In this document: positions 2,764 through 18,018 of the stretch, piece after piece
Numbering within the stretch: the first letter of the stretch is position 1
Layout of the letters: each line of letters opens with the position of its first letter
NCBI GenBank assembly: GCA_045568075.1
Contig: JBJLBP010000001.1
Coordinates: 270,001-302,000, forward strand
Length of the DNA stretch: 32,000 bases
Direction of reading: 5' to 3'
From: Candidatus Thalassarchaeaceae archaeon
GTDB taxonomy: Archaea; Thermoplasmatota; Poseidoniia; Poseidoniales; Thalassarchaeaceae
Made by a program: the position numbers and the translations under genes
Notes under the pieces: generated by a model
What the model was told of the DNA's origin: nothing
Seen by the model: only the letters and a program-made list of their open reading frames with translations
Database searches by the model: none

Positions 2764-5700
2764 GTGGTCGGAATGAACAAAGAGATACAGACTTGGTATG
2801 GTCGAGAAAATAGGAAGAAGAGCACGTCAGCCCTGATGATGGTAGTGCTGATGCTACTGAGCACACAGATGTACAATTTCATCGGTGCTGAAGAGGCTGA
2901 AACCAGCCTTGAGGGGCCGGAAGAAACTCCTGCTCGGACTGCTTACCAGCAGTTCTACCAGAGTGGCGGAGCTAGTGCAGGCGAGACTCAAGGCCAGCCG
3001 GCTTCGACCGCTGACTTCCAGCACCCAGCCTTCTCTGATGCGAATTGGGTCGATCCAGCCTCATACCAAGGCAAGATCTCCGACCCCTCCATTCTCCTGA
3101 CCGACCCAGGATACGGATTCCACCTTGAGGAGACCAATACCGAAGACCACGACAATGATGGAATCAATGATCTCGATGACCTCGATGACGACAATGATGG
3201 AATCAGCGATCTCATCGAGCGCTTCGACGGATGCTATGGAACCGATCCATTCGACCACGATAACGACGGAATCGATGACGAGAGTGATTGGGATGACGAT
3301 AACGATGGAATCCTAGAGGGCCCTATTGACTACTCACAAGGCTCCGATCCTTGGAATGTCAGTGCCGACCGTTACGTCATGCCGAATGTAGTTCATCCAT
3401 GGACTGGAACTCCGGTTGGCACCGGTTACCGAATCGATCAGAATCTGATGGATCACGATAACGATGGCGTCACCGATGAAGACATCGATGGCAGTGGGCG
3501 TGGCTCCTACGATGAGGACGACGACAACGACGCTCGCATCGATCAATTCACTTGGCCATGCGATTTCGATGGTGACGGAGCTCAGGATTACTTCGACGAC
3601 GACGACGATAACGACGGCGTCGTAGATCTCTGGGACTCACACCCTTGGGATGCCTCAATTACCACTAACATCACCGCCACAGCACCTCTTTGGGATGATT
3701 GGTATCAGTGGGTGTCTGCTGAGACTCATGATATCGAAATCAGCCCAGGAAACTTGTTCTCTCCTCGAGCATTAACCATCAATGAGGGCGATACTGTTGT
3801 ATGGACCAACGCTGATTCTCAAGATCACACAGTGACATCAGATATCGGCCTCTTCGACAGCGGTACCATCGTTCCTGGCGCAAGCTTCACATTCACCTTT
3901 GACAATGCAGGGACATTCAGCTATGTTTGCAATATCCATCCGGCTATGACTGGCACAATCACAGTTCAGTCAACGAGTGGTTCCGACAATACTTACTCCG
4001 AATATATCGGCGGTGTCGACTATGTTTCGATGGAAGCAAATGTGTGGCACCCTAGAAATCAATCCTTTACCGAAGTTGTCGATGGTGATCTCGACGGTGA
4101 TGGAATCCCGAACTTCCTTGATCCTGACAACGATAACGACGGAACACCTGACTCAGCCGATACTGATGATGACAACGATGGCTTACTCGACATGTACGAT
4201 GTCGACGACGACAATGATGGAATATGGGATGAATGCATGCAACTCGATACAAACTCGGATGGCGAAGGCGATTATCCAAATTCCTTCGATATCCAAACTC
4301 CTGGGCGTGATTGTGAGATTGATTACGACAGGGACGCGGACGATGATCGATTTCGTCCAATTGATATGGATTACGATTTGGTATGGGATTGGATGGATCC
4401 AGACATGGGAGCACTTGAACTCGATGAGCTCGACAACCCGAATGGCGCTCCTCGGAACGATCCGGATGACGAGCCCTACGATCTAGACAATGATGGCGTC
4501 CTAAACGAAGCAGACCCGTACATGCTTGCTACAGAGGAGCAAGTCAGTGAGTGGGACTGCGCCACTCAGACTAACCCCAATCCACAGAATTCCGACATGA
4601 ATTGCACCGTCGCACGTAAGTCGTACACCGGAAATAATGACTGGGATGGTGACGGTCTGAATAACTGGGAGGACCGTGATGATGATAACGACGGAATCCT
4701 CGATTGGCTAGATATTGATCCGAATTGTGATTTCGACGATGACAATGATTTGCATCTACTCAATGGTTCCCGCTTCCGTGACGATGGCCCGAATGACATC
4801 GATACCGATGTTGACGGGGATGGTTTGGCGAACGACGAGGATTGGGACGACGATAACGATGGAATATCAGATTACTACGACCCCGATGACGGAAACTGTG
4901 GAGTGGTCGACCAAGACCAGACCGACCCCTTCGCGACATATTATGGATACTCACACGGTGATGGAGACATAATCGACGGTTCAGACGACAGCGACCTTTG
5001 GGCACAATTCGAGAATACGCACTGGAAGATGTGGTGGCACTTCAATCCGTTCACAGAGGAAAATGGATTCATCTATCCTCACAATGGCTACGACGATTCT
5101 ACCGTGCCTCTGACAAATGGGCAGATTCCTGAGATGTATTGGTATGTCCTCATGCATTGGAGCCCTTGGAATGGAGCTAATTATTTCGATATTGACGTAG
5201 ACGGCGATTCACTTCAGAATGGAATCGACGTCGATTCGGATGGAGATGGACTTCCCGATTGGTGGGATCAAGATGAAGGGAATGATGGAGTTCTGGATGT
5301 TAATGATCCAGGCCAAGGAGGCTCATTCGACAATAACGAGTGTGGTTACACATTTTGGTGGCTTCTAATCGCCCAACAAGCCATTGAGCAAGCATGTGGA
5401 CTGCCGTACGCCTGGCTTTACGGTTACCCTGTTATTCCGGCCAGTCGGACGAACGGAATGTCATTCACTATTCCCTATTCCAGCCGACCCGATGCAGATA
5501 TGGACCAAGGGGCTTACAATGGAACCAATTCACAAGGTCAGTGGACCTGTGAGACTCAATGTTGGCATTTCGATTTCTTAGGTCAAGGTGATGCTGGACC
5601 GAGCGCGGCTGTAAATTACAACCAGATGAAGGATAATCGGGATTTGTATACCGCTTGGGTCGGAATCACTTTCGGATTCTTCCAATGGACTGCTGACAGT

Positions 5701-8700
5701 AATGCCAATTTATTCCCCGATGAAGTCGCTGATTTATTGAATAATGATGTTGATCCCGATGACGATTGTGGCGCTCCCATTCCAGGAAATTTAAATCCTC
5801 AATGTATGGTGAATGACACAGCAGATTTGGATGATGATTTCGACGGAGTCTACGATCATTGGGATGTCGACGACGATAACGATGGAATCTGGGATTATTT
5901 CGAAATCGACAGTAATGACGATCTCGACGACGACGCCAATATCGATGCCTCGAATTTCTTTACCGGCACAAATTGTGATGACAATGACGACGATGGAACC
6001 GACACGGATCCAGACGACGACGGTTGGTACCAAGCCGTCTGGGACAAAGGTGTGTTAGGACAGGGACTCCTATTCCCTGTGTACTACGATGTCGACAATG
6101 ATAACGACGGAGTCCCTGATGGAGAAGACCCGGATGACGATAACAATGGAGTTTCCGACGCATTACAAGAAACTCTTTGCTTCGTCGGTGAAGAACAGAG
6201 TGTTTGGGATCATGATAACGACGGTATCCTTGACTGGGCTGATGACGACTGGGACGCCGATGGATTGGTCAATACTCTTGAGTTGAATACAGCCACACCG
6301 TTCATCTCTCCATGGGATCATGATAACGACGGATTGAGAGATGACATCGATCTCGACGACGATTCGGACGGTATGCTGGATAAGGACGAGATTATGCTAT
6401 GGCCATCTCGCTTCGGTCAGGAATCAACAAACCCGTGGGACCACGACGATTACGGAAATGGAACAGGTCCCGCTAACCCCTCTGATCCATTCACCGGTCC
6501 GGACGCGATTGACGAGGATGATGACAACGACGAGAGGCCCGATCGCGATTGGGACCATCTCGAAGAGGACTGGTCGAATTCCTCAGATTGGGATAGCGAT
6601 AACGACGGAATCCTTGACGAGGATGACAAGGTGCCTACGAGAATCAATCTCACGAGCGCTAACGTCCTCTGGCTCGATGCTGTAAATCCAGCCGTTTTCC
6701 GTGGTACTGTGAACTGGCTCGACCCTGATACAGGCGTCTTCGAGCCAGCTCCAGACCTGCCGGTTCAGATTTCTATCGAATGGGCTCGAAATGGCACCCT
6801 TGCCCTCGAGACCGTCGATGTTCTGACCGATGCGGCTGGAGCTTTCGTAGTCGGACAATTCCTCTTGCCAGAGGATCTCATTGTAGGTCCTAACACGACT
6901 TACAATGTCTACGCGGAAGTCACAGAAATGTTCTATCACGACGGTTCACAGACCGAACCGATACCTGTAGAAGTTCGCGCCAATACATCGATTGACTACG
7001 TCGCATGGACATACTTCCGCAGCGATGAGCAACCACTCTTCACAGATTACAAGGTGCATTATGAGGCTGATTGGGATCGAGGAATCTTCGACAATCGAAT
7101 TCCTAACGCACCAGTCTCCTTCCGCGTTCACGGCGGACCATTCGGCAACCACACCCACCCGACCATCTTCGATGGATACGGCTACGGTTACCGCGCCGAT
7201 TCAGGTGGATGGGTCTCACTAACCTTCGTCCAAACCGCCGGCGCACAGGGTCAGTGGAAGCAGGTTCAGTGGAATTCAACCATGGATAATGGCGTTGGCA
7301 AGCTACCAGGCGGCTACGAAGAAATCGTCTGGGATGACAATGCGAAAGATCACTTCGTCCTCGGACGTTATGACTACACAAACACCAGTTTGCCGATTGG
7401 TGATTATGCATTCATTGGTTTCGCCCGCCCCGACTTGGGCGATGAATGGCCATTCCCATACCTTGAGCAGTCCGAGACAGAAGCGTTTGCTATCCGCTCG
7501 ATGCACCGAATGTACATCGAAGCTGACATGTTTACGCCATCGACTCGGCCGGTTTACTTCTGGGACACCACACAGTTCACTGGATCGTCCTTCGGAGCGT
7601 GGAGGGCTCTCTTCCACCAACCAAGTCTTGACACCGCTGGCCTCGCCTACGAAGACGTAAGCCTCGGCAAGCCGTATGCGATGACTTGGGATGGAACTCC
7701 TGAGGGACTAACTGGAGAGAGTTCCCGACTACGTCCGTTCCTCTCTTCGAACGGAACTCATTGGCGTATCGGCATGCAGAACGGTGGCGACTTCAATGTG
7801 CCACCTTGCGGACCAGTCGACCCGGTTGATCCGAATAGTGACGTTCGCTGCGAGATTATCCCTGAGATGTTTACCGGAGAGACTCTGAGAGTCATCGGAA
7901 GCGTTTGGAATCGGACTTTGGTTCCATGGCCGCATGACCCGATGACGCTACAGGTCGATCTCGATCGTAATGGAATCTTCGCGGGCTCGCAAGAGACTGG
8001 ATACGCTCGAGCACCACAGATGGTGAACGGTGTCGCGACTTTCGATTACAACTGGACCTGGTATTCTCAATATGCAGCAGGTCACTACGGAATACGTGCT
8101 GACTTCACCAACTCGAACTACTACTTCACAGGAAACCAGAGTTCGGTCCTCGCTCCTACGGGCGCTTACCTCAATGTCTCAGTCATTGGAACAACCGAGT
8201 TCAAGGAATTGCTTGAACCGCGCCTATATCGTGGCCAAAATCGCACAATCGAGGTTCAGTTGCTTGATAATTCGTTGCAGCCGCTGAAGAATTCTCAGAT
8301 TAATTATGTTTGGAGTGCGGATGGCACCAATGGCATCGCTGAGACTGACGGAACGGGTTGGTTCTCGGTCAATCTAACGATTGAGAAGGATCACAATCTG
8401 GGCAACTTCACCCTCTCTTACAACTACCCAGGTGATCCTCGCCACCAAGGAACCTCTGGAACGATGGATCTCTGGGTTGTCTCACGCACTTACATCACAC
8501 TGCAAGGTACAACCCCGAACATACGCTCCAATGGAGATATCTGGGAATTCTCAGCACAGGTGACAGATGACAATCGCACAGCCATCATCAAGGATTCCGG
8601 ACAGGCTTTGGACGGATGTGGTGAGAATGGCGGAGAAGTTCTCCTGATTATGGAAGGAACCGACTTCGACGATCGAACCCATAGACAAATCGTCGAGACC

Positions 8701-10740
8701 CTATGTCCGAACGCAGGAAACATCCACCACGAGATGGTGTTGGATCCACAACTCCTGCGCGACGACCCGCAATCCTTCCTACCGGATGGATTCGGTCCAG
8801 TAAACGTCGTATTGCGCTTCGAGGAGAACCTACCTCACGAGGGCTGTGAACCACTCGACGCAGATGCGATGAGCACTTCCGGCGCATGGGACCCATGCGC
8901 CCAGATGGTGAACAGCGATCACTTCCGCAGAGTCATGCAGTTCCAAGTCGATGGGTTCAGCCTCATCGGCCGAACAGTTCTCAACGTCGACGATCAGATT
9001 GTTTACACTTCTGAAATCGATCCATCGACCGGACAGCCAATCGAGAAGCCCATGGTCGTCACCGGCCAGCTCGTTGACGAACTCGGATCTAACCTCTCTA
9101 ACCGCGCTGTGCGCGTAACATACGAGATGGTCGGCTCTGAGACGGGAATCGTGGGTTGTCTACCAGGAACCTCAAACATGGACGGATTCTTCGAGATCAC
9201 CTGCCCGCTTTCCGGCGTTCAGGCGGGACAAGCCCGAGTGAAGGTCGAGTTCAATTCATACGAGAATAACGACCGCTACCGCTACCACAATGCAAGCGTA
9301 ACACGACTGTTCCCGGTCTTCTCGAACTCGACTATGCACCTGCAAGAAATTGGTCCGTTCCGAAATGACATCGATTCGTACACCTTCCAGAATGGCTCGG
9401 TTTTCCCGGTGCTGTATCTCAAGGAGTCATTCCACCTCGATGCTAGGTTAACTCAGACGAATGGTAATCCGATTGGCGGTAAGTGCCTGAACATCTACCT
9501 CGATCCTGAGGTTAACACTCGGCCAATCGCCACTTCGATTACGCGTGACGGAACTGGTGAAATCGAGTGGTTCAGCGGTGACCCGGAAGACAATCCCAGT
9601 CGCCGAGGAGTCGAACCGACATCTGAGATGATGGAAGGATTCAGAGTAGTTAGAATCGCATACGAACCGACTAAGGAATTACCTGGCGGATGTCGTGCCG
9701 AGACAACTCCGGTTGTCAATGGTTCCTTCATCGATATCGAAGTCCTCGTCAGGAGCCGCGTTGACATCCTACTGAAGAACCACTGGTCAAATCCAGATGG
9801 ATATCAGGAAGGAGATTGGATCAACGGATCGGTCGCAATTCTGCGCGACCGACTCGACCTCGCGGTCGAGCACCAAACGGTGATCTTCACCTACCAGTAT
9901 TGGAATGCCGAGGAAGGCATGTGGCTTCCACACAACGTGGTCTACGCTACTACGAACGAATTGGGTGTGGCATCGTTTAGCTTCGAATACTCGGGTGAAA
10001 ATATACCTGGAGAACTCGAATGTAGCCAGGCCGGTTATTGTATCGACGAAGGAAGATGGCAAGTCATAATCCACTTCAAGGGCTCACACGAGTTTGAAGA
10101 GGAATATCTCAACAATACGCCTGAAATCTATCTTGGTGAATTAGTCGCGAAGGGCGATACGAGCTTCTTCACGGTGCAGGTATTGACGATTCTAGGAATC
10201 GCAATGGCCTTCGCTCTGATGGTCGGCGCAATCATGTATCGCAATTACATTGAGCGCCGACGCATCGAGATTCTGCGCGGAATACTCACCGACTCGCTAA
10301 TGTCGCTAAAGGCGTCGAACGAATACATCGACACCATCTTCAACTGCTACAAGGAATTAGTACGATTCTTCCGCAGTCGAGGCGCGATGAAGAAGGTCTA
10401 CGAGACCACGCGAGAATTCGAGGATGCTGTGAGCACAATGCTCAGCGGCATTGCGCCGCCAGAGGATCTCAATGTCTTCTTCTCACTCTTTGAAGAAGCA
10501 AGGTACTCTGACCACGAGATTGGTGCAGACCAGCGAGACCGAGCCATCGGTGCGCTGCAGTCCATCATCAACCACATCAGTGCCTCTTTGGGCGAAGGAA
10601 TGCTAAACCGAACCACTGCTAATGAGTCCGGCCTTTACGGCTCAGTCATCAAGGCTGGCTCGTTCGTTGACTCCGAGGGTCAAGAGCGCATCGCCGGAAT
10701 CGATGACGGTTCAGACGGCGACGGCGGCTTCCGAATCTGA
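2764..10740 (+). CDS. Giant secreted, C-terminally membrane-anchored surface protein with Asp-rich Ca-binding-type repeats, a cupredoxin domain, Ig-like beta modules, a TM helix and a DUF4129-like tail
   Basis: Uninterrupted 2658-codon ORF. AGGAG at 2751-2755 lies 8 nt upstream of GTG 2764, and an alternative ATG lies at 2773. The N-terminus has a Sec-type signal (RENRKK, then a hydrophobic core, then IGA/EE). About 30 DxDxDGxxD motifs follow, then many N-x-S/T sequons. A single C-terminal TM helix is followed by a positively charged stretch. Confidence 0.9.
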   Translation: MVGMNKEIQTWYGRENRKKSTSALMMVVLMLLSTQMYNFIGAEEAETSLEGPEETPARTAYQQFYQSGGASAGETQGQPASTADFQHPAFSDANWVDPASYQGKISDPSILLTDPGYGFHLEETNTEDHDNDGINDLDDLDDDNDGISDLIERFDGCYGTDPFDHDNDGIDDESDWDDDNDGILEGPIDYSQGSDPWNVSADRYVMPNVVHPWTGTPVGTGYRIDQNLMDHDNDGVTDEDIDGSGRGSYDEDDDNDARIDQFTWPCDFDGDGAQDYFDDDDDNDGVVDLWDSHPWDASITTNITATAPLWDDWYQWVSAETHDIEISPGNLFSPRALTINEGDTVVWTNADSQDHTVTSDIGLFDSGTIVPGASFTFTFDNAGTFSYVCNIHPAMTGTITVQSTSGSDNTYSEYIGGVDYVSMEANVWHPRNQSFTEVVDGDLDGDGIPNFLDPDNDNDGTPDSADTDDDNDGLLDMYDVDDDNDGIWDECMQLDTNSDGEGDYPNSFDIQTPGRDCEIDYDRDADDDRFRPIDMDYDLVWDWMDPDMGALELDELDNPNGAPRNDPDDEPYDLDNDGVLNEADPYMLATEEQVSEWDCATQTNPNPQNSDMNCTVARKSYTGNNDWDGDGLNNWEDRDDDNDGILDWLDIDPNCDFDDDNDLHLLNGSRFRDDGPNDIDTDVDGDGLANDEDWDDDNDGISDYYDPDDGNCGVVDQDQTDPFATYYGYSHGDGDIIDGSDDSDLWAQFENTHWKMWWHFNPFTEENGFIYPHNGYDDSTVPLTNGQIPEMYWYVLMHWSPWNGANYFDIDVDGDSLQNGIDVDSDGDGLPDWWDQDEGNDGVLDVNDPGQGGSFDNNECGYTFWWLLIAQQAIEQACGLPYAWLYGYPVIPASRTNGMSFTIPYSSRPDADMDQGAYNGTNSQGQWTCETQCWHFDFLGQGDAGPSAAVNYNQMKDNRDLYTAWVGITFGFFQWTADSNANLFPDEVADLLNNDVDPDDDCGAPIPGNLNPQCMVNDTADLDDDFDGVYDHWDVDDDNDGIWDYFEIDSNDDLDDDANIDASNFFTGTNCDDNDDDGTDTDPDDDGWYQAVWDKGVLGQGLLFPVYYDVDNDNDGVPDGEDPDDDNNGVSDALQETLCFVGEEQSVWDHDNDGILDWADDDWDADGLVNTLELNTATPFISPWDHDNDGLRDDIDLDDDSDGMLDKDEIMLWPSRFGQESTNPWDHDDYGNGTGPANPSDPFTGPDAIDEDDDNDERPDRDWDHLEEDWSNSSDWDSDNDGILDEDDKVPTRINLTSANVLWLDAVNPAVFRGTVNWLDPDTGVFEPAPDLPVQISIEWARNGTLALETVDVLTDAAGAFVVGQFLLPEDLIVGPNTTYNVYAEVTEMFYHDGSQTEPIPVEVRANTSIDYVAWTYFRSDEQPLFTDYKVHYEADWDRGIFDNRIPNAPVSFRVHGGPFGNHTHPTIFDGYGYGYRADSGGWVSLTFVQTAGAQGQWKQVQWNSTMDNGVGKLPGGYEEIVWDDNAKDHFVLGRYDYTNTSLPIGDYAFIGFARPDLGDEWPFPYLEQSETEAFAIRSMHRMYIEADMFTPSTRPVYFWDTTQFTGSSFGAWRALFHQPSLDTAGLAYEDVSLGKPYAMTWDGTPEGLTGESSRLRPFLSSNGTHWRIGMQNGGDFNVPPCGPVDPVDPNSDVRCEIIPEMFTGETLRVIGSVWNRTLVPWPHDPMTLQVDLDRNGIFAGSQETGYARAPQMVNGVATFDYNWTWYSQYAAGHYGIRADFTNSNYYFTGNQSSVLAPTGAYLNVSVIGTTEFKELLEPRLYRGQNRTIEVQLLDNSLQPLKNSQINYVWSADGTNGIAETDGTGWFSVNLTIEKDHNLGNFTLSYNYPGDPRHQGTSGTMDLWVVSRTYITLQGTTPNIRSNGDIWEFSAQVTDDNRTAIIKDSGQALDGCGENGGEVLLIMEGTDFDDRTHRQIVETLCPNAGNIHHEMVLDPQLLRDDPQSFLPDGFGPVNVVLRFEENLPHEGCEPLDADAMSTSGAWDPCAQMVNSDHFRRVMQFQVDGFSLIGRTVLNVDDQIVYTSEIDPSTGQPIEKPMVVTGQLVDELGSNLSNRAVRVTYEMVGSETGIVGCLPGTSNMDGFFEITCPLSGVQAGQARVKVEFNSYENNDRYRYHNASVTRLFPVFSNSTMHLQEIGPFRNDIDSYTFQNGSVFPVLYLKESFHLDARLTQTNGNPIGGKCLNIYLDPEVNTRPIATSITRDGTGEIEWFSGDPEDNPSRRGVEPTSEMMEGFRVVRIAYEPTKELPGGCRAETTPVVNGSFIDIEVLVRSRVDILLKNHWSNPDGYQEGDWINGSVAILRDRLDLAVEHQTVIFTYQYWNAEEGMWLPHNVVYATTNELGVASFSFEYSGENIPGELECSQAGYCIDEGRWQVIIHFKGSHEFEEEYLNNTPEIYLGELVAKGDTSFFTVQVLTILGIAMAFALMVGAIMYRNYIERRRIEILRGILTDSLMSLKASNEYIDTIFNCYKELVRFFRSRGAMKKVYETTREFEDAVSTMLSGIAPPEDLNVFFSLFEEARYSDHEIGADQRDRAIGALQSIINHISASLGEGMLNRTTANESGLYGSVIKAGSFVDSEGQERIAGIDDGSDGDGGFRI
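3145..6627 (+). repeat. Array of about 30 thrombospondin type-3-like / EF-hand-like Asp repeats (coding), with a recurring nucleotide core GAYGAYGAYAAYGAYGGAATC
   Basis: Recurrent peptide (W/x)D(D/H)DNDG(I/V/L)xDxxD. Examples are DDDNDGISD, DHDNDGIDD, DDDNDGILD, DDDNDGIWD, DHDNDGILD and DSDNDGILD. Near-identical DNA cores occur near 3186, 3294, 4206, 4681, 4849, 5871, 6214, 6314 and 6594. Confidence 0.85.
3727..3969 (+). other. Type-1 (blue) copper cupredoxin domain embedded in the giant protein
   Basis: HDIEISPGNLFSPRALTINEGDTVVWTNADSQDHTVTSD...GTFSYVCNIHPAMTGTITVQ. Candidate Cu ligands are His (codon 3826-3828), Cys (3928-3930), His (3937-3939) and Met (3946-3948). The spacing is C-x2-H-x2-M. 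Confidence 0.8.
10165..10737 (+). other. C-terminal TM anchor (10165-10236) plus a cytoplasmic tail of roughly 165 aa resembling DUF4129
   Basis: FFTVQVLTILGIAMAFALMVGAIM is followed by YRNYIERRRIE (positive-inside). The tail contains TTREFEDAV...FFSLFEEARYSDHEIG, which resembles the DUF4129 pattern (TxxE ... YExARYS). Confidence 0.6.
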
Positions 10741-10889: not shown

Positions 10890-11255
10890 ATGAGCAAGAA
10901 CATGAGAAAGACCAACCAGGCCCTAATCGCCCTAATCGGCGATCTCAAGGACCAGAGCAGGTCGACCGGTTCTGCACTGTGGCGAGACGTCGCGCTGAGG
11001 CTCGAGAAGAGCCGCAGTAACTGGGCTGAACCAAACCTGAGCCGTCTGAGCCGATACGCTGCCGAAGAGGACATAGTCCTCGTTCCAGGCAAGCTTCTCG
11101 GCAGCGGTGATGTGTCCGGTAAGCCGAGCGTCGCCGCATACAGTGTCAGTACTGGCGCCCGCTCGAAGATTGAAGCAGCAGGCGGACGTGTCCTCACGAT
11201 TCGCCAATTGATGAACGAGAACCCAGATGGCCGGGGGGTGAGGATCCTTGGCTGA
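10890..11255 (+). CDS. rpl18e: 50S ribosomal protein L18e (eL18)
   Basis: 121-aa ORF. The motifs TNQALIALIGDLK...ALWRDVALRLEKSRSN...VLVPGKLLGSG...RILG are typical of archaeal L18e. A GGGAG Shine-Dalgarno lies upstream. It is the first gene of the L18e-L13-S9-RpoN operon. Confidence 0.9.
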   Translation: MSKNMRKTNQALIALIGDLKDQSRSTGSALWRDVALRLEKSRSNWAEPNLSRLSRYAAEEDIVLVPGKLLGSGDVSGKPSVAAYSVSTGARSKIEAAGGRVLTIRQLMNENPDGRGVRILG

Positions 11256-11736
11256 TGCCAGTACCCTCGTCTTCGACGCCAAGGACAAGGTCCTCGGGCG
11301 CCTCGCTAGCCATGTCGCTAGCGAGTTGCTGACAGCGCGCAAGGCCGGCGGCCAGAAGCGCGTCATCATCGTGAACGCAGAACGGGCGATCGTTACAGGC
11401 GCGAAGACTGCAGTCTTCTCCAAGTACGATCACAAGTACAAGTTGAACCACCCTCGAAAGGGTCCGTTCTTCCCTCGCATGCCGGACATGATTCTGAAGC
11501 GCACTGTGCGCGGTATGCTGCCCTACCAGAAGAACAGCAGCGGCCGCAATGCCGTTCGAGACCTACGTGTCATGATCGGAACACCAGCAAACCTTGCTGG
11601 AGACGAATTACCAGATGGCCACGCATGGGGCGACTCAAGCTCATTTGAGCGAGATTTGCCTCAGAAATTCGTGCGACTCGGTGAGATTAGTGCCCACTTA
11701 GGTGCTGACTCTAGTAGATGGGGAGGTGACCAGTGA
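11248..11736 (+). CDS. rpl13: 50S ribosomal protein L13 (uL13)
   Basis: 162-aa [24 protein letters not shown]...[13 protein letters not shown] is the uL13 signature. A TTG start at 11248 is preceded by GGTGAGGA and overlaps the L18e stop by 8 nt. Confidence 0.9.
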
Positions 11737-12173
11737 TGGCTAAGAAGAAGAAGGCAAAGATTGTCCAAATGAGTGGAAAGCGTAAGACCGCAGTCGCACG
11801 TGCAACAGTGCGTAAGGGAGCGGGCCGAGTACGCGTCAACCACAAACCGATTCACATCATGGAACCGGCCCTCGCTCGCCGTAAGGCGCTCGAGCCGGTT
11901 CAGATCGCTGAGGCGATGAACCGCCTATCCGACGTCGACGTCGTTGTCGATGTTCAGGGCGGCGGTCAAATGGGACAAGTCGACGCAATCCGCACTGCTA
12001 TAGCACGCGGCCTCGTACACTACAATGGCGGCGCTGAGGGAATTGATGAGGAACTACGAGACGAATTCCTCCGATTTGACCGCAGCCTGCTTGTCAATGA
12101 TCCACGACGCAAGGAGCCAAAGCACCAAATGGGCCGCGGCGCTCGCAAGAAGTGGCAGAAATCGTATAGGTGA
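11736..12173 (+). CDS. rps9: 30S ribosomal protein S9 (uS9)
   Basis: [23 protein letters not shown]...[19 protein letters not shown]...[11 protein letters not shown] 11736 overlaps the L13 stop and is preceded by GGGAGGTGA. An in-frame GTG at 11733 is the alternative start. Confidence 0.92.
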
Positions 12174-12605: not shown

Positions 12606-14774
12606 ATGGTCCCGGAGGGCTCGGATGATTGGGCGAACAGCGCCCGGATTGAGGAGCTGGCAGGACTCCTCGCACACCATTCTAACCTCTACTACAATGA
12701 GGCCGCTCCAGAGATTCCCGACGCCGAATATGACTTACTCTTCGACGAATTGAAGCAACTATCACCCGATCACCCACAACTAACCAAGGTAGGTTCGGAC
12801 CCCGCACCAGGATCTGTGAAGGTTGACCACTTGTTCCCAATGCGCAGTCTCGATAAGGCAACTGAGGCCGAGGAAGTCATCCATTTTGTTGCAGAAACCA
12901 CTGCTCACGGCCGCCGCTTTGTCTGCCAACCCAAACTCGACGGTTCAGCCCTATCGCTGGAATACCGTCGAGGCCGTCTAGTCCGTGCGGCCACGCGCGG
13001 AAATGGTGAGCGTGGCGAAGATGTCACAGCAAACGCTCGCCGAATCTCAAACATTCCAGAACAACTTGCTTGGGATGGTGATGCCCACGTACGAGGAGAA
13101 GTGGTGATGCCACTCGATATTTTCCGCTCGAAATACGCAAACATCGCCCCAAATCCGCGCAATCTCGCATCCGGCAGCTTACGGCAGAAGAGTGCCGATG
13201 CCGGCAAAGGAGACGCAGCTGACCTCGTATTCCACGCCTATGATGTGATGTTCCCCGAACTTGCCGACCGACACCCTGACAGCCCCTCTCCACCAGATTT
13301 CACCTTCGACTCGCAAGAGATCGATTGGTTGGTTGCAAACGGTATCGAAGTGGCTGGCAACGATGTGGTCGAAGGCGATGACGATGAGGCCGTTACAAAT
13401 GGAATTCTCGATGTCACTCAGCGCTGGACTGAGCACCGAGAAAACGCCTCGTGGGAGATCGACGGAGTCGTCATCAAACTAGATGACCTTGCAAAGCGAA
13501 GTCTCCTCGGCCAGACCGCACATCATCCTCGATGGGCACTAGCGTGGAAATTCCCTCCCGAGGAGGCATCGACAGTTCTGCTAGGAGTCGATTGGCAGAC
13601 AGGTCGGACCGGCACGGTCACCCCTGTGGCGAGAGTCGCACCGGTAACAGTCTCCGGCGTAACTGTCGAAAACACGACACTGCACAACGCCGGAGAGATT
13701 GAAAGATTGGGAATCAGCATCGGCGACAGAGTCCGAATTGTCCGTAGAGGCGATGTGATTCCCAAAATAATCGAGGTTCTCGGGCCCGCAGACCAAACTG
13801 ACCTCGACAATAGATTCCGTGCGGATGGTACTGCCTTCAGCGACCCGCTACCGCTACGCCAAGCCGTCCCAATTCCTCACGAATGCCCACGATGTGGCAC
13901 ACAACTGAAGCAGGACGGTGCCTTCATCCGCTGCTTCAACCTTGATTGCCCATCGCGCCTAGAGCGTGCAATTCTCTACTGGTGTCGAGCGCTTGAGATG
14001 GACGGCATCGGAGAGAAACTCGCAGAACAACTCTGTGAGGAAGGCCTCGTCAAGAGCTTGCCCGATCTCTACGCACTGACTCACTCAGATCTCGTAGGCC
14101 TCGAGCGCATGGGTGAGAAATCAGCAGCCAATGTCGTCACTCAACTAGATTCAACCCGCTCGCTCAACCTCTCATCCTTCCTCTCAGCCCTAGGATTGCC
14201 TGGAATAGGCCCAGAATTAGCAAGTGCCTTCGCACGTGAAGTAGGAGAAGCAACCACTCTGTTTGACTTGTTAGCCGAACCGGAGGAAGCCATCCCACGA
14301 CTGGTCACAATCGATGGCGTAGGAGAAACAGTAGCACGCTCATTCCTCGAAGGCTTAGATGAACGCAAGAGCGTCGTCGAAGGATTGGTGGACGTCCTCC
14401 TAATCGAAGCAGAACAAGTGATCGAAGAGGCGGACGGCCCTCTCACTGGTCAGACATTCTGTATCACAGGCACCCTAGGCCGTCCGCGAAAAGAAATCGC
14501 TCTGATGATCAAAGCAGCAGGAGGGAAAGTTGTCTCAACAGTCTCTGGCAAGCTCGACCACCTCGTCGCCGGAAACTCGGCTGGCTCCAAGTTGGACAAG
14601 GCGAATAGGCTCTCAGTCAACGTCCTCAGCGAAATTGACCTTGAAGCCATGCTCGCCGGCGAATCAACTCTAGACGATGGAAGCGTCGACGAAGCGGAAG
14701 GAGAAATTGTCGCCGACGCCGGCCCACAGCAGATGTCCCTCGGCGACTACGGTTCGTCGGAACCAGTAGAATAG
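12606..14774 (+). CDS. ligA: NAD+-dependent DNA ligase LigA (bacterial type)
   Basis: 722-aa ORF. It has the N-terminal Ia-domain pattern LLAHHSNLYYNEAAPEIPDAEYDLLFDEL and the adenylation motif CQPKLDGSA (KxDG). It also has the Zn finger CPRCG...CFNLDCP, HhH repeats and a BRCT domain (LTGQTFCITGTL...GGKVVSTVSGKLDHLVAG). The C-terminal tail is acidic. Confidence 0.93.
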   Translation: MVPEGSDDWANSARIEELAGLLAHHSNLYYNEAAPEIPDAEYDLLFDELKQLSPDHPQLTKVGSDPAPGSVKVDHLFPMRSLDKATEAEEVIHFVAETTAHGRRFVCQPKLDGSALSLEYRRGRLVRAATRGNGERGEDVTANARRISNIPEQLAWDGDAHVRGEVVMPLDIFRSKYANIAPNPRNLASGSLRQKSADAGKGDAADLVFHAYDVMFPELADRHPDSPSPPDFTFDSQEIDWLVANGIEVAGNDVVEGDDDEAVTNGILDVTQRWTEHRENASWEIDGVVIKLDDLAKRSLLGQTAHHPRWALAWKFPPEEASTVLLGVDWQTGRTGTVTPVARVAPVTVSGVTVENTTLHNAGEIERLGISIGDRVRIVRRGDVIPKIIEVLGPADQTDLDNRFRADGTAFSDPLPLRQAVPIPHECPRCGTQLKQDGAFIRCFNLDCPSRLERAILYWCRALEMDGIGEKLAEQLCEEGLVKSLPDLYALTHSDLVGLERMGEKSAANVVTQLDSTRSLNLSSFLSALGLPGIGPELASAFAREVGEATTLFDLLAEPEEAIPRLVTIDGVGETVARSFLEGLDERKSVVEGLVDVLLIEAEQVIEEADGPLTGQTFCITGTLGRPRKEIALMIKAAGGKVVSTVSGKLDHLVAGNSAGSKLDKANRLSVNVLSEIDLEAMLAGESTLDDGSVDEAEGEIVADAGPQQMSLGDYGSSEPVE

Positions 14775-14796: not shown

Positions 14797-15837
14797 TTAC
14801 TGTGTCAATATTCGATGGAAGTGATGAACTCCAGCCTCTTTGGTCGGAGAGTATCGGCCGCGTTCATAGGCGACTGACGAGACGCCTTTTTGGCAACCTT
14901 CGACGATAAATTGGTCCTCAGCCTCAACCTTGTCCAAGTCGCCCCCGGCACCCTTTGCAAGCATGGCTGAATCGCCGACAAACCCATGGTATACGATGCG
15001 GGTCTTGTCTACCGATTCAGGGATGACAAGATTGACCGAGAGACCCCACGGATAGAAATTCAGCATTAGACCAGGATGTAACCAAAAGTAGTATGCGGCG
15101 ATGTTCTGGCCAAAGTCAGGATGTTCTTCAGGTAAATCGAAACAAGGCTCTCCATCATTTGCAATTCCAATCTGTAGTACACCGCCATCGAAAAGCTCGG
15201 TACTGTATGCATCATAATCGAGGACGTCATGCAATCCTCCGTGGACGAATGGAATGTGAAATCCTTCCAGATAATTGTCCACATACAGCGCCCAGTTGGA
15301 TTCGATTGTATATTCTCGATGGCGATTCAAATCATGTGTGAACGCTTCGATAGATAGCCATCCGACTCGTGCCTCAACTTCGGCGATGAAGGAATCAAAA
15401 TCATCAGCTGAGACTGTGTTGAATAGCAAGCCTTTCCACTCTGCTAAAGGGAATGTTCGAAGATGATCTGCATCGGTAGGAAAATTCTCCACGGTGTCGA
15501 ATTCTGGCATACTACGAAACTGTCCATCTAAATTGAAGACGCGTCCGTGGTAGGGACATTGCAATCGCTTTGCCTCTGAGGATTCCGTACAGACAAGCAT
15601 CCCTCGATGTGTACAAACATTGGAGATGCAGTGTAATTCACCTTCACTCTGTGTAAGCAGCATCGGCTCTTTCAGAGGATTATCAATGGGTTGAGCCGTA
15701 GACAATTGGCTACGATGCGCAGCAAAGTGCCAATTCTGACCGAACGACGAGGTGACTGAATCGAAGGTCTTGGTCTCAGTGTAAAATCTGGAGGGGAGTG
15801 TCTCAGCTTTGCGGATGTCTGGGTCGATGATGGTCAT
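14797..15837 (-). CDS. Rieske [2Fe-2S] non-heme iron oxygenase, choline-monooxygenase-like alpha subunit
   Basis: 346-aa ORF. The Rieske motif is CTHRG...(16 aa)...CPYHG. The mononuclear iron region NWALYVDNYLEGFHIPFVHGGL resembles the CMO-like NWKxxxDNYLxGxHxPxxH pattern. Confidence 0.8.
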   Translation of the reverse strand: MTIIDPDIRKAETLPSRFYTETKTFDSVTSSFGQNWHFAAHRSQLSTAQPIDNPLKEPMLLTQSEGELHCISNVCTHRGMLVCTESSEAKRLQCPYHGRVFNLDGQFRSMPEFDTVENFPTDADHLRTFPLAEWKGLLFNTVSADDFDSFIAEVEARVGWLSIEAFTHDLNRHREYTIESNWALYVDNYLEGFHIPFVHGGLHDVLDYDAYSTELFDGGVLQIGIANDGEPCFDLPEEHPDFGQNIAAYYFWLHPGLMLNFYPWGLSVNLVIPESVDKTRIVYHGFVGDSAMLAKGAGGDLDKVEAEDQFIVEGCQKGVSSVAYERGRYSPTKEAGVHHFHRILTQ

Positions 15838-15863: not shown

Positions 15864-16673
15864 TCAACCGTACATCGCAGAACTCTCACCGCCAGAGTTC
15901 TCATTCTGCATTTGATTCAGTTGGACAGCCATCATCTCGCGGATTTGCTCCTCAATTCGCTGAGCCTCCTTGAGTAGCGGCTCAGGATCCAATTTGATTG
16001 CCGGCAGCAAGCCATCAAGCCGCCCAATAATCCGCGCAGCTGCCCGAGCGTCTGGAATCGCTCCGTTAGCCAAGTCATCACCCGACTCAGCAAGAATTGC
16101 CATTGCATCGATACGACGACGTCGACACTCACCGAGCATGACACCAGTCATGCCCCCCACAACTCCGTGTTTCAGCATTGGAACTTCCAATTCGCCGAGT
16201 TTTTCATGAGCAGAATCAGTCGAACCGATACCAAGCATCGACTCGGTCGAATCATCATCATCAAAGATTGAGTGAGCTTGATCAGGGCCATGTGAATATG
16301 AGTCAATCATCATCATCTGACTCGCCCCATTTGCCTCTACCCAATCTAAGATTGAATCAGCAAGAGGCAAACTCAATTCCGAAGCAACTTGAATCTCCGA
16401 AGCAATCAGCACAACCTTGTCACATCTATCCATGTGGCATATCGGCTCACCCGCATAGAATCGAAGGGGAGGCAGAGGCTTGCCCTCCTGCACCAAACAA
16501 ACCGGAGGCAGGCCTGCGCCTCTGGCACCGCCTACGAAGCTTAGCCCCAAACGGTCGACAAGATAGTGAGCAACGATGCTACTAACAAATCCAGCCGACG
16601 GAAAACAGGTCACTACAAGTGCATCTTCTACGTTCAAACTCTCGTCGACCGCGACCACAGGGGCTCCACTCAT
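15864..16673 (-). CDS. PAC2-family proteasome assembly chaperone homologue (PbaA/PbaB-like) with a C-terminal HbYX motif
   Basis: The ORF is open to 16799 (311 aa). The paralogue at 22166 aligns best from Met at 16673 (MSGAPVVAV...VVTCFPSAGFVSSIVAHYLVDRLGL). The upstream extension is antisense to the neighbouring nuclease ORF. The C-terminus ends ...SSAMYG (hydrophobic-Tyr-X). Confidence 0.7.
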   Translation of the reverse strand: MSGAPVVAVDESLNVEDALVVTCFPSAGFVSSIVAHYLVDRLGLSFVGGARGAGLPPVCLVQEGKPLPPLRFYAGEPICHMDRCDKVVLIASEIQVASELSLPLADSILDWVEANGASQMMMIDSYSHGPDQAHSIFDDDDSTESMLGIGSTDSAHEKLGELEVPMLKHGVVGGMTGVMLGECRRRRIDAMAILAESGDDLANGAIPDARAAARIIGRLDGLLPAIKLDPEPLLKEAQRIEEQIREMMAVQLNQMQNENSGGESSAMYG

Positions 16674-16692
16674 GTGTACGGAACAGACCGAG

Positions 16693-18018
16693 ATGCTGTT
16701 AATCATTGGCCCCCACAGACAGCCCGTGTCTGAGGCAGAGGCAGAGGATTTGGCGGCGCAAGATACTCCATCCGAGGCAAAGCCCGAGGACGGTTTCATC
16801 GCTCATCAACTCTCACCATCTTCGTGGAACCGCTACGAAGAATGCCCCCGCAAATACTGGCTCTCGCGCCAAGGACTCCCGCGCAAGGCGAGTATGCCAG
16901 CAGCGATGGGAAATGCAGTGCATAATTCGGTTGAGGACCTCTGCAATCTAGATCTCACTGGCCGCGATGAAGATGAGTCCGGATGGCTTCCGGCCACTGC
17001 CAAGGCCGTCCTCGACCGACACTGGCAGATAGAGAAGGACAACTTCCTCGAAACCCCTCGCCATCCTCGTTGGAAGGGAGAACAGATTACCAAGGCTCAC
17101 GATGGATTGATCGGCGCTCTAAACATCCTCTTCAGTAAATCAAATATCGATGTTCAGAATCTCTCGGAAGTTACAGTTGGGACTTGGAGAGAGGTACAAT
17201 CGATTGTTTTGGCAAACGAGGGGACTCTTGTCTCCGAGTGCGGCCGGATGATGGGTCGGCTGGATCTATTAGTTGCCGATTTGGATGAAAACGGGGAATC
17301 TCGTGGCTGGATTGTCGCCGACCTCAAAACTGGCCGCCCACCATCTCCAATGTTGAATGAGAAGGTCAGTAGACAGTTGCGATTCTATCGCGACTTGCTG
17401 AAGCAGAACAACCCGAATCATCCCCCTGTGGTCGCTGAGGGTTGGTATTCGGCCAATCAGACAGTGCATCAAGCCGATGGGCCGGATGTGCTTGAGGCAG
17501 CGCTTGAGGCGTGGGAAGGAATGCGCCCCTCCACCACACCTCTGCCGGCGAATCCCGGTGAGCAGCAATGCGGCTGGTGTGAATGGAAGGCATGGTGTCC
17601 AATTTGGTGGGCTGCTCGCCGAGATGGACTTCTTTCGCCAGGGCACATGTTCCGCGATGAGGTGGTTCAGGTGGTGCGCTTCGACCGTGAGGCAGGAGCC
17701 GCGCTTTTCCAGCGTATGCCGCCTGTCGGAGAGGAGGGTGAATTGGCACCCTCGGACCACAAATTTGGTGCTGTGATTCGTGACCAAGCCCTAACCCAAT
17801 TATCCGAATTGCTCGACTCTGGTCACGAGGGTGCCATATTCATTGGTAGCGCACGGATGGATGGCCGCGTGGCTCATCTTGGGGATTGGTGCGAAGTGAT
17901 TCCTTGGAGTCCAATGAATGAGGGTCACGCGCGCGATCACTCGCGCTGGCTGCGTAGCAATTCTGACACAGTCTTCGATGGAATCGGCGAAGATGGCGAG
18001 GCAAGCCAGTCCAAGTAG
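16693..18018 (+). CDS. Cas4-like PD-(D/E)XK nuclease with a four-Cys Fe-S cluster motif and an extra C-terminal domain of about 130 aa
   Basis: The motifs are SPSSWNRYEECPRKYWL (first Cys), GRLDLLVAD ... ADLKTGR (D...D-x-K), QLRFY (QxxxY) and CGWCEWKAWC (C-x2-C-x5-C, nt 17569-17598). The ORF is open from 16576. The start is uncertain: ATG 16672, ATG 16693 or an in-frame TTG further downstream. Confidence 0.75.
   Translation: MLLIIGPHRQPVSEAEAEDLAAQDTPSEAKPEDGFIAHQLSPSSWNRYEECPRKYWLSRQGLPRKASMPAAMGNAVHNSVEDLCNLDLTGRDEDESGWLPATAKAVLDRHWQIEKDNFLETPRHPRWKGEQITKAHDGLIGALNILFSKSNIDVQNLSEVTVGTWREVQSIVLANEGTLVSECGRMMGRLDLLVADLDENGESRGWIVADLKTGRPPSPMLNEKVSRQLRFYRDLLKQNNPNHPPVVAEGWYSANQTVHQADGPDVLEAALEAWEGMRPSTTPLPANPGEQQCGWCEWKAWCPIWWAARRDGLLSPGHMFRDEVVQVVRFDREAGAALFQRMPPVGEEGELAPSDHKFGAVIRDQALTQLSELLDSGHEGAIFIGSARMDGRVAHLGDWCEVIPWSPMNEGHARDHSRWLRSNSDTVFDGIGEDGEASQSK

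Follow-up and report, generated by a model that had tools for sequence, protein, structure and literature searches.

What is the giant protein encoded by the longest open reading frame (ORF) of a 32,000-nucleotide stretch of a Candidatus Thalassarchaeaceae genome (contig JBJLBP010000001.1, positions 270,001 to 302,000; here called the window), and what might it do at the cell surface? A preliminary description of the DNA had pictured a rod of Ca-binding Asp repeats, a redox copper center, a glycosylated beta-rich stalk, and a type I membrane anchor, and had proposed a Ca-dependent adhesin or envelope component of an uncultured archaeon. Our analysis shows that the protein is secreted and anchored in the membrane, hyper-acidic, and stapled by cysteines, and that it has numerous conserved N-glycosylation sequons and a cytoplasmic DUF4129 domain. 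We tentatively read it as a colossal envelope scaffold, similar to a surface layer (S-layer), whose DUF4129 tail would be coupled to a MoxR/DUF58 module, an interpretation that we prefer to its rivals while holding it to be somewhat short of probable.

A giant acidic protein on a membrane anchor

The gene starts with GTG, an alternative in-frame ATG lying three codons on, at position 2773, and its 2,658-amino-acid product has a mass of about 290 kDa before glycosylation (Table 1). A Sec-type signal and its cleavage are suggested by the features of the N-terminal sequence; the hydrophobicity of this segment falls below a cut-off of 1.6, which the C-terminal transmembrane (TM) helix exceeds. Only one hydrophobic stretch, that helix, passes the TM threshold, and DUF4129 (PF13559) is placed after it, scoring 27.6 bits with the full protein and 32 bits with the tail alone (cut-off, 24.8). 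Two motifs of the tail, KKVYETTREFE and FEEARYSDH, are invariant among homologues.

The ectodomain is strikingly acidic, with 488 Asp and Glu residues versus 106 Lys and Arg residues. N-x-S/T sequons number 34, against about 21 expected from composition, and 21 of them hold their position in 85% or more of 120 homologues, most of the conserved ones being located in the stalk. Cysteines are similarly constrained: 22 are invariant in a 14-sequence alignment, 14 of them belonging to the N-terminal half and the other 8 to the stalk, and across 72 sequences, the same 22 are invariant or at least 90% conserved, a pattern suggesting that they may pair as disulfides.

The N-terminal half is dominated by Asp loops. 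Between residues 128 and 1285, we counted 22 strict DxDxD[GAN]xxD motifs, compared with a mean of 0.7 (maximum, 5) in 500 shuffles of residues 100 to 1290, and a looser pattern yields 34 nonoverlapping loops in four blocks. Pfam profiles for thrombospondin type 3 repeats, TSP_3 (PF02412) and TSP3_bac (PF18884), remained below threshold (best, TSP_3, with 10.2 bits where the cut-off is 25 and an E value of 0.63), and three Asp blocks scanned against them in isolation gave no match. The loops would bind Ca2+ and stiffen the distal half of the protein in seawater. AlphaFold2 modeling of residues 91 to 1290 gave a mean predicted local distance difference test (pLDDT) score of 54, as expected for Ca-dependent loops across these ~1,200 residues; the model was usable for the cupredoxin only. 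Foldseek then returned only cupredoxins, as did a PDB sequence search with the full protein.

For the stalk (residues 1291 to 2470, with 71 homologues), AlphaFold2 gave an all-beta model of ~11 sandwich modules with a mean pLDDT of 86.7 and a predicted TM score of 0.51. A Foldseek search of the PDB with this model retrieved strings of MG/Ig-like domains from alpha-2-macroglobulin (A2M), complement, mastigonemes, and the S-layer protein of Nitrosopumilus maritimus (8c8m_A; E value, 2e-17). Several modules bear a transthyretin/CarboxypepD_reg-like signature, T[DN]xxGxF, in agreement with the precomputed Big_1 and CarboxypepD_reg matches of homologues.

Taken as an inventory of domains, the preliminary description was right, as it was in placing the protein outside the cell on a type I anchor: the two aromatic-rich inserts, the more than 20 sequons, the beta-rich Ig/CarboxypepD_reg-like modules, and the single TM helix followed by a cytoplasmic tail are all borne out. 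Its comparison to thrombospondin type 3 repeats holds for the repeated DxDxDGxxDxxD motif but not for the Pfam profiles of that family.

Table 1. Positions of the giant gene, its domains, and other features in the window
Feature	Position	Strand	Remarks
Whole gene	2764..10740	+	2,658 amino acids; identical protein P0001 present in public data
N-terminal signal-like segment	2764..2892	+	Basic n-region RENRKK, hydrophobic core at residues 23-40, IGA/EE junction
Asp-loop block I	3145..3663	+	Residues 128-300; 8 EF-hand-like DxDxDGxxD loops
Cupredoxin domain	3727..3969	+	Residues 322-402; Pfam, NCBIfam, AlphaFold2, Foldseek, PDB sequence search
Asp-loop block II	4081..4938	+	Residues 440-725; ~12 loops; invariant Cys491, 517, 599, 614, 655, 712
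Trp-rich insert	4939..5178	+	Residues 726-805; predicted helical, AlphaFold2 pLDDT 65-82
Asp-loop block III	5179..5313	+	Residues 806-850
Cys/Trp-rich insert	5314..5799	+	Residues 851-1012; invariant C860, C878, C929, C933; NRD motif at 958-960
Asp-loop block IV	5800..6633	+	Residues 1013-1290; ~12 loops
Stalk	6634..10158	+	Residues 1291-2465; ~11 Ig/MG/transthyretin-like beta-sandwich modules; 8 invariant Cys
Single TM helix	10159..10239	+	Residues 2466-2492, then YRNYIERRR (positive-inside)
Cytoplasmic tail	10240..10737	+	Residues 2493-2658; 166 amino acids
DUF4129 in tail	10345-10557	+	Residues 2528-2598; Pfam
Hairpin directly 3' of stop codon	10741..10798	+	-27.5 kcal/mol, z-score -2.6
L18e-L13-S9 ribosomal protein genes	10890..12173	+	Pfam; downstream context, outside the protein
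NAD-dependent DNA ligase LigA	12606-14774	+	BRCT, HhH
Rieske/ring-hydroxylating oxygenase alpha subunit	14797-15837	-	Between LigA and PAC2
PAC2	15864-16799	-	
PD-(D/E)XK nuclease ORF	16576-18018	+	
Triple solute-binding protein	27506-30604	+	1,032 amino acids; SBP_bac_3 and two Peripla_BP_6/ANF_receptor domains

Conservation across Marine Group II

Searching 5.8 billion protein clusters, we recovered the identical protein P0001 together with over 120 full-length representatives, 2,500 to 2,714 amino acids long and 50 to 82% identical, from ENA, NCBI, JGI, Tara, and Logan assemblies that include a polished 1.96-Mb contig. Every named source is assigned to Thalassarchaeaceae, Poseidoniaceae, Poseidonia, or Poseidoniales, spanning subgroups MGIIa and MGIIb of Marine Group II (MGII). 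The nearest relatives of the window protein are from MGIIb "Thalassarchaeum" O1 metagenome-assembled genomes (MAGs), at 85 to 89% identity, and the window neighbors (L18e, L13, S9, Trm1, and PAC2) are archaeal, so the uncultured archaeon of the preliminary description can now be placed in Poseidoniales. That description had also held that close full-length homologues of assigned function would overturn its reading; close homologues do exist, but they are annotated as "hypothetical," "DUF4129 domain-containing," or, automatically at JGI, "plastocyanin," and none bears an assigned function.

Scanning one genome per GTDB species located ~42 loci, all in MGII-type MAGs, and the true bacterial loci in that scan matched the Asp repeats only. 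Three of the contigs with full-length or near-full-length copies of the MGII gene are filed under bacterial MAGs (L016, L026, and L032; Verrucomicrobiales, Gammaproteobacteria, and Acidimicrobiaceae), labels that probably reflect binning contamination. L016 and L032 also carry L18e-L13(-S9), and L026 holds the N-terminal 1,769 amino acids only.

The gene also keeps a fixed position. L18e-L13-S9 follow downstream on the same strand, within 0.13 to 3 kb, at 33 of the 34 loci with enough 3' DNA, in MGIIa and MGIIb alike. L023 is the one related locus for which 6 kb of DNA lies downstream yet these genes are missing; rearrangement or misassembly could account for it. In the window, the hairpin after the stop codon lies ~90 nucleotides ahead of the L18e start codon and is possibly a transcript 3' end or stabilizer between the giant gene and L18e.

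Relative to an MGIIa genome, the giant protein of the window is 56% identical, compared with 63% for L13, 69% for L18e, and 78% for S9; relative to the closer MGIIb genome L002, it is 79% identical, compared with 55% for the neighboring NAD-dependent ligase LigA. The Asp blocks are best conserved (62 to 76%) and the two aromatic inserts least (40 to 44%), with block I at 76% and the Trp-rich insert at 40% to MGIIa orthologues. This pattern of evolutionary rate, together with the conservation of sequons and cysteines, argues for a constrained core component rather than a fast-evolving, copy-variable adhesin. The gene occurs throughout the order, apparently in one copy per genome.

A repeat-rich region in metagenomic data invites the suspicion of an assembly chimera or of collapsed repeats, as the preliminary description had cautioned. 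Against this stand the identical public protein and the representatives of the same length from independent assemblies, and the Asp-loop units, compared as DNA, are dispersed copies only 60 to 75% identical, the only tandem repeat being 29 bases. With the same length and architecture found in more than 120 cluster representatives and ~42 genome loci, the worry finds no support, and we put the chance of such an artifact as close to nil. Nor is the protein an orphan chimera, as a wider family of Thermoplasmatota proteins has the same stalk, TM helix, and DUF4129 tail (see below).

The same data bear on whether the protein is a Ca2+-dependent adhesin, its Asp-loop rod and stalk extending a sticky tip to particles, algae, or cells. 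Giant bacterial adhesins typically have Asp-loop repeats and Ig-like stalks, marine Bacteroidota proteins match the Asp blocks at 28 to 41% identity, and Rinke et al. count thrombospondin genes among the adhesion traits of Poseidoniales (PMC6461757; PMC8821943). However, adhesins usually vary in length and copy number, are patchily distributed, and lie in flexible regions, whereas this gene is apparently single-copy, encodes 2,500 to 2,714 amino acids throughout, and sits beside ribosomal genes in both MGII families. Near-identical tandem repeats are absent, the protein evolves nearly as slowly as L13, a passive adhesin would not be expected to keep a conserved, folded domain in the cytoplasm, and the majority of MGII cells are reported to be free-living (PMC6864105). 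An adhesin is thus an unlikely, if respectable, explanation. Between the two roles first suggested, the apparent single copy, constant length, fixed locus, and slow evolution (56% identity, versus 63% for L13) favor an envelope component, and the adhesin fits less well.

The cupredoxin insert and the plastocyanin label

The preliminary description had made a redox copper center a defining part of the protein. The cupredoxin domain itself is genuine: Cupredoxin_1 (PF13473; 30.3 bits; cut-off, 27) and Copper-bind (PF00127; 28.1 bits; cut-off, 21.2) exceed their Pfam cut-offs, NCBIfam gives partial cyanin-type matches under its cut-offs, and all four type 1 copper ligands are present (H355, C389, H392, and M395). 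The AlphaFold2 model of the domain (pLDDT, 83 to 94) has the Greek-key beta-sandwich fold and matches 5fc9 in Foldseek with a TM score of 0.83, a root mean square deviation of 0.8 Å, and 35% identity, and the PDB sequence search aligns it to the C-terminal domain of 9cck (E value, 1e-14). Both of these nearest solved relatives are from N. maritimus, which hints that the domain may have been acquired from marine ammonia-oxidizing archaea.

As a defining part, the copper center does not survive comparison. The domain separates Asp blocks I and II as an insertion that only 16 of 120 representatives carry, each of them a near relative of the window protein, and the H-C-H-M ligands are intact in only 8 of these 16 carriers, with Cys, His, and Met lost in the other 8. 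Because the insert is so restricted and half of its carriers have lost the ligands, redox chemistry is not the core function. The cupredoxin would be a late, clade-specific decoration, probably functional in the window protein and decaying in sister lineages.

One could still suppose that the protein is an extracellular blue-copper redox protein, a "plastocyanin," with the remainder as a tether. The intact ligand set in the window protein, the name given to homologues by JGI and Prokka, and the rise of the gene together with halocyanin in O1-active samples all speak for it. But the domain makes up ~3% of the protein and is absent from 104 of the 120 homologues, including all MGIIa-type sequences aligned, and apart from it, with its frequent ligand loss, no other redox domains were found. 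As a family function, blue-copper redox is already refuted by this distribution, and we give the idea very little credence overall.

The label has nonetheless reached the literature. A metatranscriptome study of MGIIb names two copper redox proteins whose genes are up-regulated where O1 is active, and one of the two is a "plastocyanin (petE)" (PMC9723583, supplementary files 4 and 6). In the supplements of that study, gene 515 of Bin 19-2, named "Plastocyanin petE" by Prokka, is 7.9 kb long, matches Pfam Big_1, adjoins L18e, and has PKD and DnaQ-like neighbors as in the window. Its size, Big_1 match, and neighbors identify this "plastocyanin" as the giant surface protein, named for its small cupredoxin insert, and the literature can be corrected accordingly: what was reported as up-regulated in active MGIIb is a surface protein and not an electron carrier. 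The family is otherwise found in the literature only under automatic or generic labels, perhaps including the "thrombospondin genes" of Poseidoniales (PMC6461757).

The supplements also give a view of transcription. In the two best-covered samples for one MAG, normalized coverage of gene 515 was 0.18 and 0.34, compared with 2.1 and 1.3 for L18e and 1.7 and 3.0 for MoxR, most housekeeping genes falling at 0.03 to 0.3; per base, gene 515 lay ~4- to 30-fold under L18e (median, ~9-fold). In O1-active samples, its transcripts increased (log2 fold change, 1.94; adjusted p, 0.08), as did those of the oligosaccharyltransferase gene aglB, halocyanin, and proteorhodopsin.

A wider DUF4129 family linked to MoxR and DUF58

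To what family does the protein belong? When the stalk was searched exhaustively against 1.84 billion representatives with HMMER, 169 matches were obtained, nearly all fragments of the same family, which indicates that the stalk has no close relatives outside the lineage. Three marine proteins of 770 to 1,017 amino acids (P0175, P0177, and P0145), some encoded on ~2-Mb contigs, match the membrane-proximal module only (residues ~2180 to 2450; 37 to 39% identity), and in P0175, this module is joined to a TSP3-like motif and a WD40 propeller. From these alignments, modules appear to be common to several MGII surface proteins.

The informative outlier is P0205, a protein of 1,983 amino acids in which TSP3_bac repeats, Transglut_core (Pfam), and CarboxypepD_reg are combined with DUF4129 at the C terminus. 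It is 33% identical to the window protein over residues 1016 to 1433 (418 amino acids; E value, 6e-29), so that block IV and the first stalk module form the best-aligning stretch, and 21% identical over residues 1770 to 2246. Homologues of P0205 are annotated as [quoted passage not shown] and one of them, P0346, aligns to the TM helix and tail of the window protein at 28% identity, with EARYSDH in common.

The loci of these relatives place the family in a recurrent genetic setting. In all four examined, the giant gene comes first and is followed by genes for DUF4350, MoxR (AAA_3; missing in one), DUF58, and a polytopic membrane protein, and a metagenome scan seeded with DUF58 added 15 loci of the same order, whose giants match a hidden Markov model (HMM) of the MGII tail with E values of 1e-20 to 1e-29. 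Three operon giants of ~1,300 amino acids combine MG2, MG4, Big_3_5, and CarboxypepD_reg domains with DUF4129 and are without a transglutaminase core or TSP3 repeats. The family core is thus a beta-sandwich ectodomain, a TM helix, and DUF4129, the other two elements being optional.

In MGII, the arrangement differs. DUF4350, MoxR, and DUF58 genes are found near the giant gene neither in the window nor within 6 to 10 kb in ~45 MGII loci, and a homologue search with the DUF4350 protein of locus L005 gave 6 matches only, none from MGII. The MGII operon was located through the supplementary table of PMC9723583 and the DUF58-based metagenome scan. Contig 40 of SIMO Bin 19-2, an MGIIb-O1 MAG, encodes a 534-amino-acid DUF4350/ABC_transp_aux-like protein, MoxR, COG1721 (DUF58), and a 313-amino-acid protein (PMC9723583, supplementary file 4); a second cluster in this MAG encodes Cdc48, a DUF4350-like protein, DUF58, and a 402-amino-acid protein. 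Locus L073 of the metagenome scan repeats the order of the first cluster and, like it, is flanked by cutA, cutB, shikimate kinase, and FtsX. DUF4350, AAA_3, and DUF58 were confirmed there with Pfam, and a DUF4129 ORF was absent from the locus and its flanks. The second cluster is repeated in ~55 marine loci (L092 to L148). MGII has kept the DUF4350-MoxR-DUF58 machinery but separated it from the DUF4129 gene.

In L073, the first cluster occupies positions 4125 to 9246 and ends in a gene for a 309-amino-acid protein; in Bin 19-2, transcripts of this cluster reach the coverage of L18e. A copy of the second, at positions 2798 to 9507 of L095, has a gene for a 413-amino-acid protein and adjoins a divergent ORF of 1,080 amino acids without a Pfam match.

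Within the DUF4129-tailed, MoxR/DUF58-linked family, what is new in MGII is the loss of the transglutaminase-like domain, the ~34 predicted Ca loops unseen by TSP3 profiles, the private inserts, and the relocation beside the ribosomal operon.

That distant relatives carry Pfam Transglut_core and TgpA_N, and that the top Foldseek matches of the stalk are to the A2M/complement family, raises the question of a protease trap or transglutaminase-type enzyme, A2M-like or TgpA-like. Yet the modeled stalk consists of beta structure throughout and lacks a helical thioester domain, and its matches have TM scores of 0.1 to 0.17 at 7 to 12% identity. In addition, the catalytic Cys is missing from the core of all nine transglutaminase-bearing relatives aligned, which have Ser or Pro at G-x-C-x-x-F-A. 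Transglut_core (PF01841) was detected neither in the full MGII protein (E value cut-off, 0.1) nor in six sub-segments (E value of ≤10), and when the core of the relatives was compared with each MGII segment in hhalign, probabilities stayed below 8%. An enzyme or trap is accordingly a most improbable role for the protein, and the Thermoplasmatota giants themselves, whatever their names in databases, probably lack transglutaminase or protease activity. The Cys-less relatives are P0205, P0312, P0313, P0314, P0325, P0327, P0330, P0346, and P0355 (e.g., L005:316-6267), in several of which His is replaced by Lys.

One candidate for a cryptic transglutaminase core, residues 855 to 1000 (ECGYTFWW...GLPYAWLYGY...CWHFDF, resembling G-x-C-x-x-F-A...GIPAR...HAW), was considered and rejected. 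In its putative triad, C860 is invariant, and position 935 is H in 85 sequences, W in 19, Q in 7, and Y in 5; helix length also varies, and the HMM comparison to P0205 was negative.

The association with MoxR and DUF58 can be read in another way, with the protein as a low-copy TM sensor or coupler whose ectodomain would read Ca2+, envelope stress, or a ligand and whose DUF4129 tail would relay to MoxR/DUF58. The conserved tail with its invariant motifs, the genetic linkage of relatives to MoxR AAA+ and DUF58 genes, and a transcript level that is moderate next to ribosomal and MoxR genes would all suit such a role. For a sensor, however, a 2,400-amino-acid ectodomain with many sequons and ~34 predicted Ca loops is extravagant, Ca2+ in seawater is constant and saturating, and known signaling domains were not found with Pfam or NCBIfam. 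We regard a sensor as doubtful.

A proposed envelope scaffold and its significance

How, then, might an envelope scaffold work? Following Sec export and N-glycosylation, the ~1,180-amino-acid stalk would stand on the membrane and carry the ~1,200-amino-acid distal region, which Ca2+ in seawater (~10 mM) would lock into a rigid, very negative canopy. Many copies of the protein would together make up the outer envelope of the wall-less MGII cells, as an S-layer-like coat or a glycocalyx, and the DUF4129 tail would offer a handle for the MoxR AAA+/DUF58 (vWA-like)/DUF4350 module to assemble, position, or recycle the protein. A bolder version makes it the principal subunit of the MGII envelope, of S-layer type, with the tail docking an ATP-using MoxR AAA+/DUF58(vWA)/DUF4350 machine that assembles, spaces, or recycles the coat; we offer this as a speculation that is more probably wrong than right by a wide measure.

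Several points weigh against the scaffold. Its S-layer-like role is read from genes and transcripts, from which a lattice and protein abundance are extrapolated. The gene is transcribed, but below L18e and MoxR, a modest level for a main S-layer gene. The N-terminal half lacks a confident model, at a mean pLDDT of 54, and the likeness of the stalk fold to A2M and S-layer proteins is generic, given the low identities and TM scores cited above. Known S-layer proteins are short-tailed, in contrast to the 166-residue folded cytoplasmic domain here. Coupling of DUF4129 to MoxR/DUF58 is suggested by gene neighborhood in other lineages, and the partner module is ambiguous, since MGII has two DUF58 clusters.

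MGII are the most abundant planktonic archaea of surface waters and are uncultured (PMC6461757). Our searches for literature on an MGII S-layer, archaeal DUF4129, and MGII surface glycoproteins returned nothing specific; the MGII cell envelope is undescribed in the literature searched, and the gene is an order-wide candidate for its main protein. It also links a ~290-kDa surface protein to the uncharacterized DUF4129/DUF4350/MoxR/DUF58 sets found across archaea and bacteria and thereby gives an entry point to their study. A canopy of ~380 net negative charges and ~34 predicted Ca2+ sites per molecule could affect cation binding, virus attachment, and particle interactions. If the docking of the tail to the MoxR/DUF58 machine were true, the DUF4129-DUF4350-MoxR-DUF58 (TgpA-type) sets of archaea and bacteria would constitute an energy-dependent system for assembling envelope proteins, and MGII would be a natural case of substrate and machine at separate loci.

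Other genes in the window

Further genes of the window merit brief mention (Table 1). LigA, a bacterial-type ligase in an archaeal genome, is syntenic in MGIIa and MGIIb and diverges fast, at 55% identity where ribosomal proteins have 84 to 94%. The Rieske/ring-hydroxylating oxygenase gene that follows it has a GC content of 0.47, versus ~0.53 to 0.55 around it, and in the syntenic MGIIb genome L002, LigA is followed directly by PAC2; with its low GC content, the gene looks like a recent insertion. The PD-(D/E)XK nuclease ORF overlaps PAC2 by ~220 nucleotides, and translation probably begins at a more downstream codon than listed, as the orthologue in L002 has 430 amino acids versus 480. The triple solute-binding fusion is of the aapJ/livK type, a type reported to be very highly transcribed in MGIIb.

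Comparison with known systems

The distal half of the protein invites comparison with the thrombospondin type 3 "wire" and its bacterial TSP3 counterparts. Common to them are the DxDxDGxxDxxD loop, a 13-residue period, and interspersed conserved Cys, which would imply many Ca2+ sites; unlike them, the window protein misses the profile thresholds and is without EGF or lectin domains. Small blue copper proteins of the amicyanin/plastocyanin type share the fold and the H...C-x2-H-x2-M pattern with the cupredoxin, the N. maritimus structures 5fc9 and 9cck being 35 to 36% identical, whereas here the domain is inserted in a 2,658-amino-acid surface protein of one MGIIb subclade.

Nearest in overall plan are the Thermoplasmatota DUF4129 giants, none of them characterized, which comprise the P0205, P0312, P0313, P0346, and P0325 types and the shorter proteins of L074, L079, and L087, in which MG/Big domains are joined to DUF4129, all encoded upstream of DUF4350-MoxR-DUF58. 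With the MGII protein they share a signal or N-terminal TM segment, an MG2/Big/CarboxypepD_reg stalk, one TM helix, and a DUF4129 with EARYSDH, and those bearing a transglutaminase domain also carry Asp-rich TSP3-like repeats. The MGII protein differs from them in having no transglutaminase-like core, in its ~34 Asp loops unmatched by the TSP3_bac profile that recognizes the repeats of its relatives, in its two private Cys/Trp-rich inserts and the cupredoxin of one clade, and in the position of its gene upstream of L18e, off the operon.

TgpA of Pseudomonas aeruginosa is a transglutaminase-like membrane protein with a C-terminal DUF4129 and is encoded with DUF58 and MoxR. It has ~670 amino acids, a polytopic N terminus (TgpA_N), and an active-type Cys-His-Asp core. 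Shared with the window protein are an extracytoplasmic domain, a TM helix, and a cytoplasmic DUF4129, along with the genetic association of the family with MoxR/DUF58; the MGII protein, four times larger, is without TgpA_N, a polytopic N terminus, or a catalytic core.

The closest parallels to an envelope scaffold are archaeal S-layer proteins. PySLP of Pyrobaculum, at 2,659 amino acids, combines 19 Ig-like domains with a signal peptide and a TM helix at the C terminus (bioRxiv 10.64898/2026.08.21.746120), and NmSLP is an acidic, glycosylated Ig-array S-layer protein (PMC11153153). For PySLP, NmSLP, and csg, abundance and a lattice have been shown, whereas the window protein is known from genes and transcripts alone. 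These proteins also have short basic tails or lipid anchors, no DUF4129, and no Asp-loop half, and sequence homology to the window protein is undetectable. What they have in common with it is a signal peptide, a very large ectodomain, an Ig-like pillar near the membrane, and a C-terminal TM anchor; they are N-glycosylated, a modification that the conserved sequons predict for the window protein, and NmSLP also has a strong negative charge like that of the window protein.

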